Source of the DNA: Escherichia coli
GTDB lineage: Bacteria > Pseudomonadota > Gammaproteobacteria > Enterobacterales > Enterobacteriaceae
Strand: one strand, 5' to 3'
Assembly (NCBI RefSeq): GCF_044647545.1
Contig: NZ_CP172818.1
Length of the DNA stretch: 64,000 nt
This document shows positions 260 to 23,464 of the stretch, piece after piece. Under the pieces are notes generated by a model. That model saw only the letters and a program-made list of their open reading frames with translations, searched no databases and was not told the DNA's origin. The first letter of the stretch is position 1. Each line of letters starts with the position of its first letter. A program made the translations under genes and the position numbers.

Positions 260-1318
260 TTATTCAGGCGTAAAGTGGCGTAAATGTTGTACCGTGGCAA
301 GCCACGCTGCCACCCAGCCAATCATCGAGCATACCAGCAGCAATAGCAGGCATTCATCGAACGATAAGCCATTGATATCAAACTTTGTTCCGAAAACCTG
401 TGCCACTTCCGCAACCGCCGATGACAAACGCAGTACCAGAATTTCTGACAAAATTAGTGACAACAATGCGCCAGAAAATCCCAGCAATGCGCCTCCGTAC
501 AGGAACGGGCGCAGGATGAAACCATCCGTCGCACCAATCAGTTTCTGCACGTTAATGGAGTCACGGCGAGCAAAGATACTCAGGCGCACACTGTTACCGA
601 TGACGAGGAACACTGCTGCCACCATCAACACGCCGATCATCGCGGAAACGCGCCCGACCAGCCCGGTTAACGCCGCCAGACGGGCAAACCAGCTGTCATC
701 CATCCGCACTTCGTCAATGCCATTGATCTGGGTGATACGATCACGCAGCGTATTCAGTGATTCCGTCCCCTGAAAATCGAGTTTCGGGATCACCACCGCC
801 ACTGCCGGAAGCGGGTTTTCTTCCAGCATATCCAGCGCACCACCAAAACCAGACCAGTTACGGAACTCGCCCAGTGCGTCTTCACGAGAAAGATAATTCA
901 CTTTCTCCACGCCTTGCTCGGCCTGCAACTGTGCCACCACGCCCGCAGCGGCGTCATCGTCCAGCGTTTTTTGCAGATAAACAGTGATTTGCGGTGACGG
1001 ATAATATTGCGTCGCCGCCTGGTTAACGTTTTTGTACACCATATAACAGACGCTGGGCAGCGTCAGGGAGATGGCGATAACCATCACCGTTAAAAACGTG
1101 GCGAACGGTTTGCTTTTCAGATCCTGCAATGCGCCGTGGAAGGCATAGCGCACCTGTTCGTTGAAAACGTTGGTTTTGCGATTTACCGGTTTTGGCGAGG
1201 ATTTCGCCCGTTTTGGCGCGTTACGACCGCCGTCGCCAGAGCCGCCGACCGATTTACGGAAGCGATCCAGACGCCCGCCAAACTGCCGAATATGATTGAT
1301 TGCATCGCGCTTATTCAT
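260..1318 (-). CDS. ftsX: Cell division ABC transporter permease FtsX
   Basis: ORF 260..1345; start trimmed to [15 protein letters not shown] (352 aa); start overlaps ftsE 3' end. Confidence 0.95.
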
Positions 1319-1979
1319 GGCCCACGCCTCCATGCAAGTGACCATCGCTCAGGGTGAGCATGCGATAGGAACGCCGCGAGATCAGGTTGATGTCGTGCGT
1401 TGCCATCAATACGGTTACCCCAACGCGGTTAAACTCTTCAAACAGACGTAAAATGCCTTCCGACAGCGCGTCGTCCAGGTTACCAGTCGGTTCGTCCGCC
1501 AGCAGTACCGCGGGCTTGTTCACCACCGCGCGGGCAATGCCAACACGCTGTTGTTCACCGCCGGAAAGCTGAATAGGGAAGTTCTTCGCTTTGTCCAGTA
1601 GCCCGACTTTATCCAGCGCCGCCGACACCCGGCGACGAATGTCATCACCGCTGGCACCGGCGATAATCAGCGGGATCGCCACGTTATCATAGACAGTACG
1701 GTCCATCAGTAGATGGTGATCCTGGAAAATCATGCCAATCTGGCGGCGCAGAAACGGAACTTCACGGTTTTTCAGACGCGTGATGTCATGGCCGCTAAAC
1801 CAGATTTTCCCGGCGCTGGGCCGCTCAATCCCACAGATCAGCTTCAGGAGGGTACTTTTCCCTGCGCCGGAATGACCGGTCAGAAACGCCATCTCACCCG
1901 GCTGCATATGGAACGTAACGCCCTGCAGCGCCTGTCTCCCACCGAGATAAGCCTTGCTGACATGTTCAAAGCGAATCAT
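1311..1979 (-). CDS. ftsE: Cell division ABC transporter ATPase FtsE
   Basis: 222 aa, Walker [13 protein letters not shown] signature LSGGEQQR; directly downstream of ftsY. Confidence 0.97.
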
Positions 1980-1981
1980 TG

Positions 1982-3469
1982 TTAATCCTCTCGGGCAAAA
2001 AGTGCCTCTATAAAGTCGTCCGCCTTAAACGGACGCAAATCCTCAATACGTTCGCCGACACCAATGTAGCGGATAGGGATACCAAACTGGTCAGCCACCG
2101 AGAAAATTACCCCGCCTTTCGCCGTGCCGTCCAGTTTCGTTAGCGTGATGCCGGTTAAGCCAACGGCTTCGTGGAACAGTTTGGCCTGGCTTACCGCATT
2201 CTGCCCGGTGCTGGCATCGATGGTCAGCATAACTTCATGCGGAGCTTCAACGTCGAGTTTCTTCATCACGCGGACGATTTTCTTCAACTCTTCCATCAGG
2301 TGCGATTTGTTCTGCAGGCGTCCGGCGGTATCGGCAATCAGGACGTCGATGTTACGCGCTTTAGCGGCCTGAATGGCATCGAAGATAACAGAAGCGGAAT
2401 CCGCACCGGTATGCTGGGCAATCACCGGAATATTGTTGCGCTGACCCCAGACCTGAAGCTGTTCAACCGCTGCTGCACGGAAAGTATCGCCCGCCGCCAG
2501 CATCACCGATTTACCCTGCTGCTCAAACTGACGTGCCAGCTTACCAATCGTCGTGGTTTTACCCACACCGTTGACGCCCACCATCAGGATCACGAACGGC
2601 GTTTTACCTTCAACATTCAGCGGCTCATCGACTTTCGCCAGAATCTCGCCCATCTCTTCTTTCAGCAGGCCATAGAGCGCCTCGGCATCACGAAGCTGCT
2701 TGCGGGATGCGCCTTCTGTCAGATTGGTGATAATTTTACGTGTGGTTTCCACGCCCACATCGGCGATCAACAGCTGTTCTTCCAGCTCTTCAAACAGATC
2801 ATCGTCGATTTTTTTACCGCGGAACAGGCTGATAAATCCGGAACCGAGATTTTCTTTGGTTTTTAACAGGCTGCGTTTCAGGCGCGCGAAGAAACCTTCT
2901 TTGGTCGGTTTTTCCTGCTCCTGAGCGATTTCTTCCACCGGCTGCTCTTCTTCTGCCGGAGGAACCACTATCACCGCCTCTTCGGCAGCCAGCGCCTGTG
3001 CTTCCAGCTCTTCGTCGGTGATTTCTTCTTTAGCCGCTTCTTCTTCCGCCGCTTCGACAATCTCTACGGTTTCCGCTTCGGCCTGCCACTCTTCTGGCGA
3101 AACCTCTTCGGCGTTGACGTCTTCCGGCAACGGCAGTTCTTCACGCTCGATAGCCACTGGCTCCGGCGTTTCTTCTGCGACCAGTTCCGGCTGTGCAACG
3201 ACTTCCGCTTCAGGCTGCGCTTTTTCACTTTCAGCAACCTGTTCAGTAACTTCCACAACGTCGGCAGCAAAAGTTTCCGCCTCGGCTTCAGTATGCGCCT
3301 GCGGCTGCTCTTCAACGGCTTGTTCAGAAGCCTTCACAGGCTCTTGCGCCTGAACGATTTCTTCTACAACTGGTTGTTCATTCTGAACTTCTGTCTCTTT
3401 TTCCGGGGTCTGCTCTTTTTGACCAAAGCCCAGCCAGGAAAAAAAGCCACGTTTTTTTTCTTTCGCCAT
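1982..3469 (-). CDS. ftsY: Signal recognition particle receptor FtsY
   Basis: 495 aa; acidic E/A/Q-rich N-terminal domain followed by SRP-GTPase NG domain (GVNGVGKTTT, DTAGR). Confidence 0.95.
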   Translation of the reverse strand: MAKEKKRGFFSWLGFGQKEQTPEKETEVQNEQPVVEEIVQAQEPVKASEQAVEEQPQAHTEAEAETFAADVVEVTEQVAESEKAQPEAEVVAQPELVAEETPEPVAIEREELPLPEDVNAEEVSPEEWQAEAETVEIVEAAEEEAAKEEITDEELEAQALAAEEAVIVVPPAEEEQPVEEIAQEQEKPTKEGFFARLKRSLLKTKENLGSGFISLFRGKKIDDDLFEELEEQLLIADVGVETTRKIITNLTEGASRKQLRDAEALYGLLKEEMGEILAKVDEPLNVEGKTPFVILMVGVNGVGKTTTIGKLARQFEQQGKSVMLAAGDTFRAAAVEQLQVWGQRNNIPVIAQHTGADSASVIFDAIQAAKARNIDVLIADTAGRLQNKSHLMEELKKIVRVMKKLDVEAPHEVMLTIDASTGQNAVSQAKLFHEAVGLTGITLTKLDGTAKGGVIFSVADQFGIPIRYIGVGERIEDLRPFKADDFIEALFARED

Positions 3470-11090: not shown

Positions 11091-12140
11091 ATGGAAACCC
11101 CTCAACCCGATAAAACGGGCATGCACATTCTGCTCAAGCTGGCCTCGCTGGTGGTGATCCTCGCGGGAATTCACGCAGCGGCAGATATCATTGTGCAGCT
11201 GTTACTGGCGCTGTTTTTTGCCATCGTCCTCAACCCGCTCGTCACCTGGTTTATTCGTCGGGGAGTACAACGCCCCGTTGCCATTACGATTGTGGTGGTG
11301 GTGATGCTGATCGCACTAACCGCGCTGGTCGGCGTACTGGCGGCATCGTTTAACGAATTTATCTCTATGCTGCCGAAGTTTAATAAGGAGCTGACGCGCA
11401 AACTTTTTAAATTGCAGGAGATGTTGCCTTTTCTTAATTTGCATATGTCGCCGGAGCGAATACTGCAGCGGATGGACTCGGAAAAAATGGTTACCTTCAC
11501 CACGGCGCTAATGACCGGGCTTTCCGGGGCAATGGCGAGCGTGCTTTTGCTGGTGATGACCGTAGTTTTCATGCTGTTTGAAGTGCGCCACGTCCCTTAC
11601 AAAATGCGTTTTGCGTTGAATAATCCACAGATTCACATCGCCGGACTACACCGCGCCTTAAAAGGTGTTTCGCACTATCTTGCATTGAAGACACTGCTAA
11701 GTTTATGGACAGGCGTAATCGTCTGGCTGGGGCTGGCGCTAATGGGCGTACAGTTTGCGCTGATGTGGGCAGTACTGGCGTTTTTGCTCAACTACGTGCC
11801 CAATATCGGCGCGGTAATTTCCGCCGTACCGCCAATGATTCAGGTGCTGCTGTTTAATGGCGTTTACGAATGTATTCTGGTCGGCGCATTGTTTTTAGTG
11901 GTCCATATGGTCATCGGCAATATTTTAGAACCACGGATGATGGGCCATCGCCTGGGGATGTCCACCATGGTGGTATTTCTTTCATTGTTAATTTGGGGAT
12001 GGCTGCTCGGCCCGGTAGGGATGCTACTTTCGGTACCATTAACCAGCGTGTGTAAAATCTGGATGGAAACCACCAAAGGCGGTAGCAAACTGGCGATTTT
12101 ACTGGGACCGGGCAGACCGAAAAGTCGATTACCGGGATGA
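11091..12140 (+). CDS. yhhT: AI-2E family (PerM-like) transporter YhhT
   Basis: 349 aa from METPQPDKTG; polytopic membrane protein. Confidence 0.88.
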   Translation: METPQPDKTGMHILLKLASLVVILAGIHAAADIIVQLLLALFFAIVLNPLVTWFIRRGVQRPVAITIVVVVMLIALTALVGVLAASFNEFISMLPKFNKELTRKLFKLQEMLPFLNLHMSPERILQRMDSEKMVTFTTALMTGLSGAMASVLLLVMTVVFMLFEVRHVPYKMRFALNNPQIHIAGLHRALKGVSHYLALKTLLSLWTGVIVWLGLALMGVQFALMWAVLAFLLNYVPNIGAVISAVPPMIQVLLFNGVYECILVGALFLVVHMVIGNILEPRMMGHRLGMSTMVVFLSLLIWGWLLGPVGMLLSVPLTSVCKIWMETTKGGSKLAILLGPGRPKSRLPG

Positions 12141-12194
12141 GGCGACAAGTGTTACGATACGCACTTTCATTTTCCATTAAACGTTGGCCCTGAT

Positions 12195-12782
12195 ATGTAT
12201 CGGATAGTTCTGGGGAAAGTTTCGACCTTAAGCGCAGCTCCTCTGCCACCGGGTTTACGCGAGCAAGCACCGCAAGGTCCACGACGCGAACGCTGGCTGG
12301 CGGGGCGTGCATTGCTTTCGCACACGCTTTCCCCGCTACCGGAGATCATCTATGGCGAACAAGGCAAACCTGCATTCGCGCCGGAAACGCCGCTATGGTT
12401 CAACTTAAGCCATAGCGGTGACGATATCGCCCTGCTGTTGAGCGATGAAGGCGAAGTCGGCTGCGATATCGAAGTGATTCGCCCGCGCGCCAACTGGCGC
12501 TGGCTGGCGAACGCCGTATTCAGCCTTGGGGAACATGCCGAGATGGACGCCGTGCATCCTGATCAGCAACTGGAAATGTTCTGGCGCATCTGGACGCGCA
12601 AAGAAGCCATCGTTAAACAGCGTGGCGGCAGCGCCTGGCAAATCGTCAGCGTAGACAGCACCTATAACTCCTCGCTGTCAGTCAGCCATTGTCAGCTAGA
12701 AAATTTAAGCCTGGCGATCTGCACCCCTACCCCCTTTACGCTCACCGCCGACAGTGTGCAATGGATCGATTCAGTTAACTGA
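12195..12782 (+). CDS. acpT: 4'-phosphopantetheinyl transferase AcpT
   Basis: 195 aa; PPTase-like motifs (FNLSHSGD, WTRKEA). Confidence 0.9.
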   Translation: MYRIVLGKVSTLSAAPLPPGLREQAPQGPRRERWLAGRALLSHTLSPLPEIIYGEQGKPAFAPETPLWFNLSHSGDDIALLLSDEGEVGCDIEVIRPRANWRWLANAVFSLGEHAEMDAVHPDQQLEMFWRIWTRKEAIVKQRGGSAWQIVSVDSTYNSSLSVSHCQLENLSLAICTPTPFTLTADSVQWIDSVN

Positions 12783-12828
12783 TCCGCCCACCCGACTGCC
12801 CATCTATTGATCCAGAACAGGTAATCAG

Positions 12829-12856
12829 TATGACGAATACTTAAAATCGTCATACT
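12829..12856 (+). promoter_or_regulatory. NikR operator GTATGA-N16-TCATAC in the nikA promoter
   Basis: Exact match to the two-half-site NikR operator pattern 37 nt upstream of nikA; possible FNR-like half site TTGAT at 12808. Confidence 0.85.
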
Positions 12857-12892
12857 TATTTCCGCCATCTATTTTAATCCATTGGGGTTACC

Positions 12893-14467
12893 ATGTTCTC
12901 TACACTCCGCCGCACTCTATTTGCGCTGCTGGCTTGTGCGTCTTTTATCGTCCATGCCGCTGCACCAGATGAAATCACCACCGCCTGGCCGGTGAATGTC
13001 GGGCCACTAAACCCGCACCTTTACACGCCTAACCAAATGTTCGCCCAGAGCATGGTTTATGAACCACTGGTGAAATATCAGGCAGACGGTTCGGTGATCC
13101 CGTGGCTGGCAAAAAGCTGGACCCATTCAGAAGATGGCAAAACCTGGACCTTCACCCTGCGTGATGATGTGAAATTCTCTAACGGTGAACCGTTTGATGC
13201 AGAGGCCGCGGCAGAAAACTTCCGCGCTGTGCTCGACAACCGTCAACGTCACGCCTGGCTGGAGCTGGCAAACCAGATTGTTGATGTCAAAGCTCTCAGT
13301 AAAACCGAGCTGCAAATCACCCTGAAAAGCGCCTACTACCCTTTCCTGCAAGAACTGGCCCTGCCCCGTCCTTTCCGCTTTATCGCCCCCTCGCAGTTTA
13401 AAAACCATGAAACCATGAATGGGATTAAAGCGCCGATTGGCACCGGGCCGTGGGTTTTGCAGGAATCGAAACTGAATCAGTACGATGTCTTCGTCCGTAA
13501 CGAAAACTACTGGGGCGAAAAGCCGGCGATTAAGAAGATCACTTTTAACGTCATCCCAGACCCGACTACCCGCGCAGTAGCGTTTGAAACCGGCGATATC
13601 GATCTACTATACGGTAATGAAGGGCTATTACCGCTCGATACCTTCGCCCGCTTTAGCCAGAACTCGGCTTACCACACCCAACTGTCACAGCCGATCGAAA
13701 CCGTGATGCTGGCGCTCAATACTGCCAAAGCCCCCACCAACGAGCTGGCAGTCCGTGAAGCTCTTAATTACGCGGTAAACAAAAAATCGCTGATCGATAA
13801 CGCGTTGTATGGCACCCAGCAGGTCGCCGACACCCTGTTTGCCCCTTCCGTGCCCTATGCCAATCTCGGCCTGAAACCGCGCCAGTACGATCCGCAGAAA
13901 GCAAAAGCGTTGCTGGAACAAGCAGGCTGGACGCTGCCCGCAGGCAAAGACATCCGCGAGAAAAATGGTCAGCCGCTGCGCATTGAACTGTCGTTCATCG
14001 GCACCGATGCGTTAAGCAAATCAATGGCCGAAATCATTCAGGCTGATATGCGCCAGATTGGCGCGGATGTCACGCTGATCGGCGAAGAAGAGAGCAGTAT
14101 CTATGCTCGTCAGCGCGACGGTCGTTTTGGCATGATTTTCCACCGTACCTGGGGCGCGCCATACGATCCACACGCCTTCCTGAGTTCAATGCGCGTACCG
14201 TCGCACGCTGACTTCCAGGCACAGCAAGGTTTAGCCGACAAGCCACTGATTGATAAAGAGATTGGCGAAGTGCTGGCGACACACGACGAAACACAACGTC
14301 AGGCACTGTATCGCGACATTCTGACCCGTCTGCATAACGAGGCGGTTTATCTGCCCATCAGCTATATCTCAATGATGGTGGTTTCAAAACCGGAACTGGG
14401 TAACATCCCCTACGCGCCGATCGCCACCGAAATCCCGTTCGAACAGATTAAACCGGTGAAACCTTAA
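12893..14467 (+). CDS. nikA: Nickel ABC transporter periplasmic binding protein NikA
   Basis: 524 aa with signal peptide; first gene of nik operon. Confidence 0.96.
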
Positions 14468-15407
14468 TGTTGCGTTATGTATTACGCCGCTTTCTGCTGC
14501 TGATCCCGATGGTGCTCGCCGCCTCGGTGATCATTTTTCTGATGCTGCGCCTCGGCACCGGCGACCCGGCGCTCGATTATCTGCGTCTGTCTAACCTGCC
14601 GCCGACGCCGGAAATGCTGGCTTCTACCCGCACCATGCTGGGGCTGGATCAGCCGTTGTACGTGCAGTACGGAACCTGGTTGTGGAAAGCGCTGCATCTT
14701 GACTTTGGTATCTCATTCGCCAGCCAACGCCCGGTGCTGGACGATATGCTGACCTTCCTGCCCGCCACGCTGGAGCTGGCGGGTGCGGCGCTGGTATTAA
14801 TTCTGCTCACTTCCGTGCCGCTCGGCATCTGGGCGGCGCGCCATCGCGACCGCCTGCCGGATTTCGCCGTGCGTTTTATCGCGTTTCTTGGCGTGTCGAT
14901 GCCTAACTTCTGGTTGGCGTTTTTACTGGTGATGGCATTTTCAGTGTATCTGCAATGGCTGCCCGCGATGGGTTACGGCGGCTGGCAGCACATCATTTTG
15001 CCTGCGGTTTCCATCGCTTTTATGTCGCTGGCGATTAACGCGCGTCTGCTGCGCGCCAGTATGCTGGACGTCGCCGGTCAGCGTCATGTGACCTGGGCGC
15101 GACTGCGCGGCCTGAACGACAAACAGACCGAACGCCGCCACATCCTGCGCAATGCCTCGCTGCCGATGATCACCGCCGTGGGGATGCACATTGGCGAACT
15201 GATTGGCGGGACGATGATTATCGAAAACATCTTTGCCTGGCCGGGCGTCGGGCGCTATGCGGTGTCGGCGATTTTTAACCGTGACTATCCAGTGATCCAA
15301 TGCTTTACGCTGATGATGGTGGTGGTTTTTGTGGTCTGTAATTTGATTGTCGATTTGCTCAACGCCGCGCTGGACCCGCGTATTCGTCGTCATGAAGGAG
15401 CGCACGC

Positions 15408-15411
<4 letters not shown>
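14467..15411 (+). CDS. nikB: Nickel ABC transporter permease NikB
   Basis: 314 aa; start overlaps nikA stop. Confidence 0.96.
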
Positions 15412-18235
<2,824 letters not shown>

Positions 18236-18278
18236 CTATTAAAATTAAGTTCGTACGTCTGTAAAAAAGGATTTTACG

Positions 18279-21200
18279 ATGAGCGGAAAACCGGCGGCGC
18301 GTCAGGGCGACATGACGCAGTATGGCGGTAGCATTGTTCAGGGTTCTGCCGGGGTGCGTATTGGTGCCCCCACCGGCGTGGCCTGTTCAGTGTGCCCCGG
18401 CGGGGTGACGTCCGGTCATCCGGTCAATCCGCTGCTGGGTGCAAAGGTCCTTCCCGGCGAAACCGACCTTGCCCTGCCCGCCCCGCTGCCGTTCATCCTC
18501 TCCCGCACCTACAGCAGTTACCGGACAAAAACGTCCGCGCCGGTGGGGAGCCTCGGCCCCGGCTGGAAAATGCCTGCGGATATCCGCTTACAGCTGCGCG
18601 ATAACACACTGATACTCAGTGATAACGGCGGCAGAAGCCTGTATTTTGAGCACCTGTTTCCCGGTGAGGACGGTTACAGCCGCAGCGAGTCACTCTGGCT
18701 GGTGCGCGGCGGCGTGGCGAAACTGGATGAAGGTCACCGGCTGGCCGCACTCTGGCAGGCGCTGCCGGAAGAGCTTCGCCTGAGTCCGCATCGTTATCTG
18801 GCGACGAACAGTCCACAGGGGCCGTGGTGGGTACTCGGCTGGTGTGAGCGGGTGCCGGAGGCGGATGAGGTGCTGCCTGCGCCGCTGCCGCCGTACCGGG
18901 TACTGACCGGGCTGGTGGACCGCTTCGGGCGCACACAGACGCTCCACCGCGAAGCCGCCGGTGAATTCAGCGGCGAAATCACCGGCGTGACGGATGGTGC
19001 CGGGCGTCACTTCCGGCTGGTACTGACCACGCAGGCGCTGCGGGCAGAAGAGGCCCGGCAGCAGGCCATTTCCGGCGGGACGGAACCGTCCGCTTTTCCT
19101 GATACCCTGCCGGGTTACACCGAATATGGCCGGGACAACGGTATCCGCCTGTCCGCCGTGTGGCTGACGCACGACCCGGAATATCCGGAGAATTTACCTG
19201 CCGCGCCGCTGGTGCGCTATGGCTGGACGCCACGCGGCGAACTGGCGGTGGTGTATGACCGCAGCAATACACAGGTGCGCAGCTTTACTTACGATGATAA
19301 ATACCGGGGCCGGATGGTGGCGCACCGTCACACGGGCCGGCCGGAAATCCGTTACCGTTACGACAGTGACGGGCGGGTGACAGAACAGCTAAACCCGGCA
19401 GGCTTAAGCTACACCTATCTGTTATGAGCAAAACCGCATCACCATCACCGACAGCCTGAACCGCCGTGAAGTCCTGCATACGCAGGCGAAGGCGGCCTGA
19501 AGCGGGTGGTGAAAAAGGAACACGCGGACGGCAGCGTCACGCAGAGTCAGTTTGACGCGGTGGGCAGGCTTAAGACACAGACGGATGCCGCAGGCCGGAC
19601 AACAGAATACAGCCCGGATGTGGTGACGGGCCTCATCACGCGCATCACCACGCCGGATGGCAGGGCATCGGCGTTTTACTATAACCACCACAGCCAGTTA
19701 ACGTCAGCCACCGGGCCTGACGGGCTGGAAATACGCCGGGAATATGATGAATCCGGCCGTCTGATTCAGGAAACCGCCCCTGACGGCGATATCACCCGCT
19801 ACCGTTATGATAATCCACACAGTGACTTCCCCTGCGCAACGGAAGATGCCACCGGCAGCCGGAAAACCATGACGTGGAGCCGTTACGGTCAGTTGCTGAG
19901 CTTCACCGACTGTTCCGGCTACCAGACCCGTTATGACCATGACCGCTTCGGGCAGATGACGGCGGTGCACCGCGAGGAAGGCCTGAGCCAGTGCCGCGCA
20001 TACGACAGCCGTGGACAGTTAATTGCCGTGAAAGACACGCAGGGCCATGAAACGCGGTATGAATACAACATCGCCGGTGACCTGACCGCCGTCATTGCCC
20101 CGGACGGCAGCAGAAACGGGACACAGTACGATGCGTGGGGAAAGGCCATCCGTACCACGCAGGGCGGGCTGACCCGCAGTATGGAATACGATGCTGCAGG
20201 ACGGGTCATCCGCCTGACAAACGAAAACGGCAGCCACACCACCTTCCGTTACGATGTACTCGACCGGCTGATACAGGAAACCGGCTTTGACGGCCGCACA
20301 CAGCGTTACCACCACGACCTGACCGGCAAACTTATCCGCAGCGAGGATGAGGGGCTGGTCACCCACTGGCACTATGACGAAGCAGACCGCATCACGCAGC
20401 GAACGGTGAATGGTGAAACCGCAGAACAGTGGCGGTACGACGAACGCGGCTGGCTGACACAAATCAGCCATCTCAGCGAAGGGCACCGGGTGACGGTGCA
20501 TTACGGGTATGATGAGAAAGGCCGCCTGACCGGTGAGCGCCAGACGGTGCATCATCCGCAGACGGAAGCACTGCTCTGGCAGCATGAGACCAGACATGCG
20601 TACAACGCGCAGGGGCTGGCGAACCGCTGTATACCGGACAACCTGCCCGCCGTGGAATGGCTGACTTATGGCAGTGGTTACCTGGCAGGGATGAAACTCG
20701 GCGACACACCGCTGGTGGAGTACACCCGCGACCGCCTGCACCGGGAAACGCTGCGCAGCTTCGGCCGTTATGAACTCACCACCGCTTATACCCCTGCCGG
20801 GCAGTTACAGAGCCAGCACCTGAACAGCCTGCAGTATGACCGCGATTACACCTGGAACGACAACGGCGAACTCATTCGCATCAGCAGCCCGCGCCAGACC
20901 CGGAGTTACAGCTACAGCGACTCCGGCAGGCTGACCGGCGTTCACACCACCGCAGCGAACCTGGATATCCGCATCCCGTATGCCACGGACCCGGCAGGTA
21001 ACCGCCTGCCCGACCCGGAGCTGCACCCGGACAGCACCCTCAGCATGTGGCCGGATAACCGTATCGCCCGTGACGCGCACTATCTTTACCGGTATGACCG
21101 TCACGGCAGGCTGACGGAGAAAACCGACCTCATCCCGGAAGGGGTTATCCGCACGGATGATGAGCGGACTCACCGGTACCATTACGACAGCCGGCACCGG

Positions 21201-22514
21201 CTGGTGCACTACACGCGGACACAATATGCAGAGCCGCTGGTCGAAAGTCGCTATCTTTACGACCCGCTGGGCCGCAGGGTGGCAAAACGGGTGTGGCGGC
21301 GTGAACGGGACCTGACGGGCTGGATGTCGCTGTCACGGAAACCGGAAGTGACCTGGTACGGCTGGGACGGCGACCGCCTGACCACGATACAGAACGACAG
21401 AACCCGCATCCAGACGGTTTATCAGCCGGGGAGCTTCACACCACTCATCAGGGTCGAAACCGCCACCGGTGAGCAGGCGAAAACGCAGCGCCGCAGCCTG
21501 GCGGATGCGCTTCAGCAGTCCGGCGGCGAAGACGGTGGCAGTGTGGTGTTCCCGCCGGTGCTGGTGCAGATGCTCGACCGGCTGGAAAGTGAAATCCTTA
21601 CTGACCGGGTGAGTGAGGAAAGCCGCCGCTGGCTGGCATCGTGCGGCCTGACGGTGGCGCAGATGCAAAACCAGATGGACCCGGTGTACACGCCGGCGAG
21701 AAAAATCCACCTGTACCACTGCGACCATCGCGGCCTGCCGCTGGCGCTTGTCAGCACGGAAGGGGCAACAGAATGGTGCGCAGAATACGATGAGTGGGGC
21801 AACCTGCTGAATGAAGAGAACCCGCACCAGCTGCAACAGCTTATCCGCCTGCCGGGTCAGCAGTATGATGAGGAGTCAGGCCTGTATTACAACCGCCACC
21901 GCTATTATGACCCGCTGCAGGGGCGGTATATCACTCAGGATCCGATTGGGCTGAAGGGGGGATGGAACCTGTATGGATATCAATTGAATCCGATATCAGA
22001 CATCGACCCCCTGGGTTTATCTATGTGGGAGGATGCAAAATCGGGGGCATGTACTAATGGTCTTTGCGGCACACTATCCGCTATGATAGGTCCAGATAAG
22101 TTTGATTCTATAGATAGCACCGCATATGACGCCTTAAATAAAATAAATAGCCAATCTATTTGCGAAGATAAAGAGTTCGCTGGTTTAATATGTAAGGATA
22201 ATAGTGGCAGATATTTCTCAACAGCACCTAACCGAGGGGAAAGAAAAGGATCATATCCATTCAATAGCCCTTGCCCTAATGGTACTGAGAAAGTATCAGC
22301 TTATCATACTCATGGTGCAGATAGTCATGGAGAATATTGGGACGAAATATTTTCAGGCAAAGATGAGAAAATAGTTAAAAGTAAAGATAACAATATCAAG
22401 TCATTTTATTTGGGCACGCCCAGTGGTAATTTTAAAGCAATAGATAACCACGGGAAGGAAATAACAAACGGAAAAGGATTACCTAATGTCTGCAGAGTTC
22501 ATGGTAATATGTAA
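18279..22514 (+). pseudogene. rhsB: Rhs core protein with C-terminal toxin tip (RhsB-like), interrupted by a compensated frameshift at about 19422..19484
   Basis: Two same-frame ORFs (18279..19427, 19506..22514) with YD-repeat content, PxxxxDPxGL core end at about 21945..22020 and an AT-rich tip; two in-frame TGA codons between them. Confidence 0.85.
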
Positions 22515-22869
22515 AAAAATATTTTTTAGGAACTGTGTCATTGTATCTTTGTTTGTTTTTACATACAACACATGGGCGCAGTGTAATAATAATATTAAAA
22601 TAATGCGCAAGTATGAAAGTGAGGGTAAATATACCGTTAGAAATTTGGTTAAAAATAAAGCTATAGCATTGGAATTAGCTGAGATATATGTTAAGAATCG
22701 TTATGGGCAGGATGCCGCAGAAGAAGAAAAACCATATAAAATCACTGAGTTAACAACAAGTTGGGTTGTTGAAGGCACCATTCACTCAGACCAAATTGCT
22801 GGTGGGGTTTTTATTATAGAAATAGGCAAAAATGATGGGGTAATTCTGAATTTTGGCCACGGAAAATAA
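22486..22869 (+). CDS. yhhH: Putative Rhs immunity protein YhhH
   Basis: 127 aa AT-rich ORF overlapping the rhs stop; alternative start at 22501. Confidence 0.7.
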
Positions 22870-22973
22870 GTATGTAAGGATAATCAAACATCGTGTGCGC
22901 TGATGGCAGAGTAGGTGGAGGACTCCAGACAGTCAAACGATAAAAAAAGATAGCCTTTATGGAGGCTCCTGCA

Positions 22974-23357
22974 ATGTCAAATACATACCAGAAAAGAAAG
23001 GCAAGTAAAGAGTATGGTTTATATAATCAATGTAAGAAACTAAATGATGATGAATTATTTCGCTTACTTGATGATCACAATTCCTTGAAAAGGATTTCAT
23101 CTGCCAGAGTATTACAGTTAAGAGGTGGGCAAGACGCTGTTAGATTGGTAATTGAGTTCTGCTCTGATAAAAATTATATCCGTAGAGATATCGGAGCATT
23201 TATACTCGGGCAAATAAAAATTTGCAAAAAATGCGAAGATAATGTGTTTAATATTTTGAACAATATGGCATTGAATGATAAGAGCGCTTGCGTTCGAGCT
23301 ACGGCAATCGAGTCAACGGCCAGGGAAAGATCATCAAAAGTACACTTTTTGTACTAA
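22974..23357 (+). CDS. Hypothetical protein, possibly an orphan Rhs-associated immunity protein (helical-repeat-like)
   Basis: ORF 22959..23357; likely start 22974 after GGAGG; AT-rich, between yhhH and H-repeat transposase. Confidence 0.4.
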   Translation: MSNTYQKRKASKEYGLYNQCKKLNDDELFRLLDDHNSLKRISSARVLQLRGGQDAVRLVIEFCSDKNYIRRDIGAFILGQIKICKKCEDNVFNILNNMALNDKSACVRATAIESTARERSSKVHFLY

Positions 23358-23464
23358 ATAATTCGCATTTTATGTTTAAAAATTGAGATATTCCTCATTA
23401 CCTGAAGCTGTTTTTTATTGCTTATACATGATCAAATACTCCTTACATAATTAAGGAGAACAAA

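Follow-up and report, generated by a model that had tools for sequence, protein, structure and literature searches.

A JAB-type toxin tip and a predicted exported immunity protein, YhhH, in an Escherichia coli rhsB element: a candidate periplasmic metallopeptidase behind a disrupted Rhs core

Rhs proteins form a shell around a C-terminal toxin, release this toxin by autoproteolysis after a DPxGL motif, and deliver it to other cells, and a cognate immunity protein accompanies each toxin. [quoted passage not shown] The gene pair analyzed in this study appears to share the logic of an exported immunity protein opposing a hydrolase; however, its enzyme fold is unrelated to the folds of those effectors, and its toxin is the C-terminal tip of an Rhs protein.

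The toxin domain of this pair belongs to a catalogued class. Zhang et al. (2012, PMC3482391) equated the family DUF4329 with Tox-JAB-2, described its conserved E, H[ST]H, S, and D residues and its fusion to RHS repeats, and gave Imm-NTF2-2 as the Tox-JAB-2 immunity family, limited to "E. coli only". The domain, the motif, the RHS fusion, and the adjacent Imm-NTF2-2 gene are all shared by the locus described here. In contrast to the "E. coli only" distribution, we also found Imm-NTF2-2 genes adjacent to distantly related DUF4329 toxins, both in metagenomes and in Acidobacteria-type records. A related pair, rhsD-ybbC, sits at another rhs locus of E. coli than rhsB-yhhH; according to RefSeq, which uses the family name YbbC/YhhH, YbbC is a paralogue of YhhH.

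This study used a 64,000-nucleotide stretch of E. coli DNA, hereafter termed the window. The gene order within it is nikD-nikE-nikR, rhsB, yhhH, a short HEAT-repeat ORF, yhhI, yhhJ, and rbbA. Both the chromosomal site (nikR / yhhJ) and the gene order match those of the K-12 type rhsB-yhhH element; unlike that element, the window carries two indels with premature stops in the rhsB core. Within this E. coli rhsB element, positions 22020-22869 constitute the toxin-immunity cassette. The finding of rhsB-yhhH is in itself already known, because the element is common in E. coli and the pairing of the two domains was described in 2012. The features of the element are as follows.

18279..19427, + strand: 5' fragment of rhsB, 382 codons, ending at a premature TGA (ORF list; Pfam DUF6531, E=2.7e-18).
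19418..19485, + strand: out-of-frame patch from a +1 insertion (T) to a -1 deletion (G), located by pairwise alignments to L001 and L010, two reference loci described below.
19506..22019, + strand: remainder of the rhsB core, with RHS repeats and the RHS-associated core (PF05593 RHS_repeat, E=1.6e-63, 10 stretches; PF03527 RHS, E=2.5e-16).
22020..22514, + strand: C-terminal toxin tip of RhsB, 164 aa plus stop, with a Tox-JAB-2/DUF4329 domain of the JAB-fold metallohydrolase type.
Catalytic codons of the tip: E52, 22173-22175; H96, 22305-22307; H98, 22311-22313; S112, 22353-22355; D115, 22362-22364.
22486..22869, + strand: yhhH, 127 aa, Imm-NTF2-2 immunity protein (Pfam PF15631, E=3.4e-25, residues 60-127).
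22959..23357, + strand: truncated yibA-like HEAT-repeat gene (NCBIfam PRK09687, E=3.6e-48, profile positions 1-126 of 285).
23465..24601, + strand: yhhI, an intact ISAs1-family (ISEc1, "H-repeat") transposase gene, 378 aa (Pfam DDE_Tnp_1_assoc, E=7e-34; DDE_Tnp_1, E=7.5e-31; RefSeq homologous loci).

An initial annotation of the window had placed the end of the conserved core, DPIGL...DPLGL, at about 21945..22020 and had reported an abrupt switch to AT-rich DNA after it. Both observations held. The autoproteolysis motif at the core end was found as DPIGL at 21939-21953 and DPLGL at 22005-22019, and the G+C content fell after DPLGL from about 0.63 to 0.35. Measured over 200-nt intervals, it was 0.58-0.65 at 21300-21900 and 0.41-0.28 at 22000-22700, and it remained low until about 24650. 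The codons of the tip (22020-22511) are in frame with the core and are followed by a TAA stop at 22512-22514. The tip had been described as a Cys- and Gly-rich segment of about 164 residues; the 164 codons are present, but the tip is only modestly rich in either residue, with 6 Cys and 18 Gly beside 17 Ser, 15 Lys, and 14 Asn.

The same annotation had seen in the tip no motif assignable to a known toxin class, a statement that our profile searches overturned. Residues 33-149 of the tip matched Pfam DUF4329 (PF14220) over profile positions 2-112 of 116, with 135.9 bits against a cut-off of 28.6 bits (E=7.9e-40). A scan of 1.84 billion cluster representatives identified 753 homologues of the tip at E<=0.001. 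In 118 extracted domains, E52, H96, H98, S112, and D115 were 99-100% conserved and T97 was 97% conserved; in a 56-sequence alignment, T97 and D115 were each conserved at 90% or more. The tip in the window retains all of the catalytic residues. Its AF2 model (pLDDT 94.1, pTM 0.89) exhibited the JAB/MPN (deaminase-like alpha+beta) fold, and the best structural matches of the tip were peptidases and isopeptidases. The tip is thus a JAMM-type metal-hydrolase domain with a complete Glu / His-x-His / Ser-x-x-Asp site, and it presumably depends on zinc. The Pfam JAB family did not match the tip, and NCBIfam had no model matching the tip or YhhH. Sequence searches of the PDB with the tip, YhhH, and the DUF4329 profile returned only chance-level matches (E about 0.3-1.7), and no solved structure of a DUF4329 family member was detectable there by sequence.

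We compared the tip with the JAMM/MPN+ isopeptidases AfJAMM, PfJAMM1, Rpn11, BRCC36, AMSH, and CBASS Cap3, to which it is only 11-20% identical. The spacing between the HxH motif and the Ser is 13 residues in the tip, whereas it is about 7 residues in the canonical JAMM motif. Unlike these isopeptidases, the tip combines co-varying cysteine pairs with an apparently exported inhibitor. Among the toxin sequences, C58 and C85 were both present in 53 and both absent from 50, and they occurred singly in 1 and 14; C11 and C16 were present together in 14 of 14. Paired co-variation of this kind would be expected if the cysteines formed disulfides, bonds that arise outside the cytoplasm. A ubiquitin-like substrate would not be expected for the tip. 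The residues of the Ubl-tail tunnel are unconserved in Tox-JAB-2 (Zhang et al. 2012, PMC3482391).

The DUF4329 carriers that we sampled were Rhs, teneurin-like, SpvB/TcC-like, and VgrG proteins. At locus L008, a VgrG spike (Phage_GPD, Phage_base_V, Gp5_trimer_C) encoded at 394-3075 carries a C-terminal DUF4329 and is followed by a 193-aa protein without a signal peptide and then by a PAAR protein. This arrangement links the toxin family directly to the T6SS. In addition, DUF4329 ends giant SpvB/TcC-like, teneurin-like (TTR/NHL/YD-shell), and cadherin/Big_9-repeat proteins (L012, 2001-9026; L013, 2001-8045; L003, 3001-7644). The short DUF4329 representatives, among which we looked for stand-alone proteins with a signal peptide, were mostly Rhs fragments.

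The gene directly downstream of the tip is yhhH, which had been said to encode 127 aa and to overlap the stop codon of the tip in the usual toxin/immunity arrangement. The analysis agreed on both points. The gene (22486-22869) begins within the toxin ORF, so that the two overlap by 29 nt, and AAGGA, a Shine-Dalgarno sequence, lies 7 nt ahead of its start codon; its product matched Imm-NTF2-2 with 88.4 bits (cut-off, 26), a family already paired with DUF4329. The order of DUF4329 followed by Imm-NTF2-2 recurred at L005, L007, and L009, where the toxins are 43%, 47%, and 36% identical to the tip, respectively. From this sequence evidence, we infer that YhhH is the cognate immunity protein that would neutralize the tip.

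YhhH exhibited the NTF2-like alpha+beta cone fold with the conserved Tyr and Trp, and its core resembled cystatin-like, PepSY, and metalloprotease propeptide folds as well as VirB8/NTF2-like periplasmic domains. The structural neighbors of the core (model residues 215-290) included PepSY and the propeptides by which secreted M4 and M36 metalloproteases are inhibited. A fold of this type, which is a common one, would suit a peptidase inhibitor. We also modeled a fusion of the tip, a (GGGGS)6 linker, and mature YhhH with AF2 by using a partly paired alignment; the pTM was 0.59, and the two domains were confidently predicted but their interface was not.

The N-terminus of YhhH bears on where this neutralization would occur. 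Residues 1-31 (22486-22578) form a predicted Sec signal peptide, and the mature domain is encoded at 22579-22866. The signal consists of an n-region with KK..R, an 11-residue h-region, and a c-region reading NTWA|Q; the 10-residue Kyte-Doolittle maximum is 2.75. The hydrophobic core is too short for a membrane helix and is typical of a cleavable Sec signal. Because YhhH would be made with such a signal, it is expected in the periplasm. Met6 (ATG 22501) is conserved beside Met1 in all close homologues. The start codon of yhhH is uncertain, because a start at Met6 would give a more canonical signal peptide of 26 residues. We considered whether YhhH is a lipoprotein processed at "WAQC" and rejected this candidate; the Gln at -1 is unfit for a lipobox, and the Cys is missing in homologues.

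We then examined the export signal across the family. A profile search with six diverse Imm-NTF2-2 members returned 539 proteins. Among the distant matches listed, 31 of 34 diverse proteins carried a classical signal peptide as judged by a hydropathy heuristic and by eye rather than by a trained predictor, with MKK or MRK, a hydrophobic core, and then A-x-A. Of the remaining three, two were fragments truncated at the N-terminus and one was a short sequence. As a control, the same crude test was applied to 31 long ORFs in the window and flagged 13 of them (binomial p about 2.5e-9). The sequence of the signal region diverges from E. coli to Acidobacteria, whereas its physicochemical pattern is kept. 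Neither the near-universal export signal of Imm-NTF2-2 nor its implication for the site of the toxin was present in the literature that we searched.

The gene directly 3' of each of ten diverse DUF4329 toxins was also inspected. The downstream protein had a signal peptide or a lipobox at six loci (L005, L006, L007, L009, L013, and L014) and was not exported at three (L003, L008, and L012); that at L015 looks spurious. The partner at L013 has a lipoprotein-type signal (…LIWSC). Where the downstream protein was not of the NTF2 type (L003, L006, L008, L012, L013, and L014), Pfam assigned no family to it. In a Salmonella SPI-6 survey, the protein paired with PAAR-Rhs-DUF4329 effectors is CdiI-like and lacks both a signal peptide and a membrane helix (PMC10469887).

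Signal-less partners of this kind would fit a different site of action, in which the tip is a cytoplasmic nuclease or RNase, YhhH neutralizes it in the cytoplasm, and the N-terminus of YhhH is not a functional export signal. Zhang et al. (2012, PMC3482391) proposed a nuclease role from an analogy to RadC-clade JAB domains, and later papers list DUF4329 as "RNase". However, the assays reported concern only other Rhs-CT types. As summarized in a review, Ma et al. 2017 (PMID 27871130), to which the "RNase" label of later genome surveys traces, assayed only Rhs-CT1 (metallopeptidase-4), Rhs-CT3 (REase-3), and Rhs-CT5 (Toxin_55), none of which is DUF4329. No experiment on DUF4329/Tox-JAB-2, whether on toxicity, on chemistry, or on the "RNase" label, was found in the literature searched. 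Furthermore, the n-h-c signal peptide preserved in 31 of the 34 Imm-NTF2-2 proteins, the co-variation of the toxin cysteine pairs, and the peptidases and isopeptidases among the nearest structures all argue against a cytoplasmic nuclease, and we consider this explanation unlikely.

We favor a periplasmic metallopeptidase because the immunity family nearly always carries an export signal, six of the ten sampled toxins have an exported neighbor, and the toxin cysteine pairs co-vary. Reasoning from an exported immunity protein to a periplasm-acting effector has also been used in PMC10469887. For the locus in the window, it is reasonably probable that rhsB encodes a JAB-type toxin acting as a metallopeptidase on the envelope from the periplasm and opposed by exported YhhH, and that the core of the gene is broken and delivery has been lost. 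The wider claim, that Tox-JAB-2/DUF4329 domains are periplasmic JAMM metallo(iso)peptidases rather than RNases and are blocked by the secreted NTF2/PepSY-like YhhH family, is more tentative, and we rate it at slightly below an even chance. The family memberships, the motif, the fold, the signal-peptide pattern, and the gene disruption were observed directly in the data, whereas we infer the site of action, the peptidase chemistry, the neutralization by YhhH, and the loss of delivery.

In an intact RhsB, the tip would be held inside the Rhs shell, cut free after DPLGL by the aspartyl autoprotease of the shell, and delivered into a neighboring cell. It would then act as a metallopeptidase on an envelope substrate in the periplasm of the target, where the disulfides of the toxin may form. 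YhhH, exported via Sec, would guard the periplasm against the tip. Because JAMM enzymes are isopeptidases, the substrate might be a peptidoglycan cross-link or the Lpp-peptidoglycan bond, which is only a guess.

The initial annotation had also stated that the core upstream of the tip is frameshifted, and the alignments bore this out. We aligned positions 18279-22869 with the intact rhsB-yhhH of strain 1919D3 (L001) and placed the indels more finely by using rhsC of FDAARGOS_497 (L010), the nearest intact core, which is 99.5% identical over 1.3 kb. Relative to these references, a T is inserted in the window at about 19418-19423, and a G is missing at 19485. The 66 nt between the two indels are out of frame and contain stops at 19425-19427 and 19467-19469. 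The ORFs at 18279-19427 and 19506-22514 share one reading frame, and the total length of 18279-22869 equals that of the 1919D3 rhsB-yhhH despite the two indels. At its N-terminus, rhsB matched PAAR_motif with E=0.043, which is below the cut-off and reaches only the final 19 positions of the 70-position profile; the 5' fragment may hold the remnant of a PAAR-like N-terminus, as this weak and partial match would indicate. No uninterrupted frame runs from the N-terminal loading region to the tip, an interruption that sequencing error could also produce.

If the sequence is taken at face value, rhsB would be a pseudogene here. A full-length, deliverable RhsB is probably not made, because the two indels put stops in the core; the toxin of this genome thus probably cannot be delivered, and yhhH is intact. 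A sequencing or assembly error is conceivable because the indels cancel in length and one of them sits in a G run, and in that case the locus would be a functional rhsB-yhhH cassette. The +1 and -1 changes are separated by 66 nt and together re-establish the frame, and the remainder of the 4.2-kb gene is open. Nevertheless, several substitutions (19385, 19479, and 19496) fall close together in one 110-nt stretch with the indels, a cluster that would also suit a real mutated or converted patch, and we put the chance of an intact gene at about one in four. The simplest reading is that of a decaying toxin gene beside an immunity gene that is kept and still useful. The intact yhhH would still protect this strain against neighbors with a working copy of the toxin.

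It had further been suggested that the tip may be orphaned or expressed only from an internal start. In the Salmonella rhs-CT/rhsI system, internal expression of the Rhs-CT yields an intracellular toxin-antitoxin pair, and in S. Typhimurium internal transcription starts 89 nt upstream of PxxxxDPxGL and is accompanied by internal translation starts (PMC7043789). A similar arrangement here, with an internal promoter and start codon driving the tip and yhhH independently of the broken core, would be compatible with the in-frame ATG at 22023 directly after DPLGL and with the intact frames of both genes. However, the analysis did not sustain expression from an internal start. The GTG at 19506 is only a mechanical start, being the first such codon past the second stop. 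A scan for sigma-70-like promoters, which is a weak test, found none at 21300-22100, upstream of yhhH, or elsewhere on the + strand before 23423, and no good Shine-Dalgarno sequence precedes ATG 22023. Moreover, the Salmonella-type logic fits poorly because YhhH is exported, and an exported antitoxin could not neutralize a cytoplasmic toxin. We consider an intracellular toxin-antitoxin pair at this locus very improbable. A tip product without the N-terminal region could not load on the secretion apparatus.

The locus itself is ordinary: roughly one in two complete E. coli genomes carries the rhsB-yhhH cassette. Of 5426 complete genomes, 2681 contained at least 80% of 21900-23460, and 2021 contained at least 80% of the whole rhsB element. 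The tip protein is 99% identical to E. coli entries, and YhhH is 96-99% identical. The DNA of the whole element (18100-24800) is at most about 96-97% identical to that of any complete genome, and the flank at 12000-18200 is 100% identical to that of several E. coli strains, such as FDAARGOS_497. In the strains that share these flanks, the interval from nikR to yhhJ contains a hicAB toxin-antitoxin pair in place of the rhsB element (L011). The first 1.3 kb of rhsB in the window (18279-19600) is 99.5% identical to rhsC of the flank-sharing strains (L010) and is closer to it than to any rhsB. This proximity to rhsC suggests that rhs cores have exchanged sequence by gene conversion.

Downstream of yhhH, the truncated yibA-like ORF is probably the remnant of an orphan immunity gene cut short beside the ISEc1 copy; the same remnant is annotated as partial in RefSeq. 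Strain 2014C-3075 (L002) carries the same tip and yhhH at its rhsA locus, followed by a full-length yibA, and this position at rhsA indicates that the tip-yhhH-yibA cassette moves between rhs loci. The yhhI gene forms the distal boundary of the AT-rich part of the element. In strain 1919D3 (L001), yhhI is a pseudogene with an internal stop, and the copy in the window is intact.

The "RNase" label of DUF4329 is repeated in the searchable literature without an assay, yet the immunity family of this toxin is almost always exported. If the periplasmic reading is true, these toxins would constitute a JAB-fold enzyme class that acts outside the cytoplasm, and an annotation in thousands of Enterobacteriaceae genomes would be corrected. 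A common and easily manipulated gene pair of E. coli would then offer an entry to a new envelope-targeting toxin chemistry. The finding would also bear on what Rhs elements do in strains that have no obvious delivery system.
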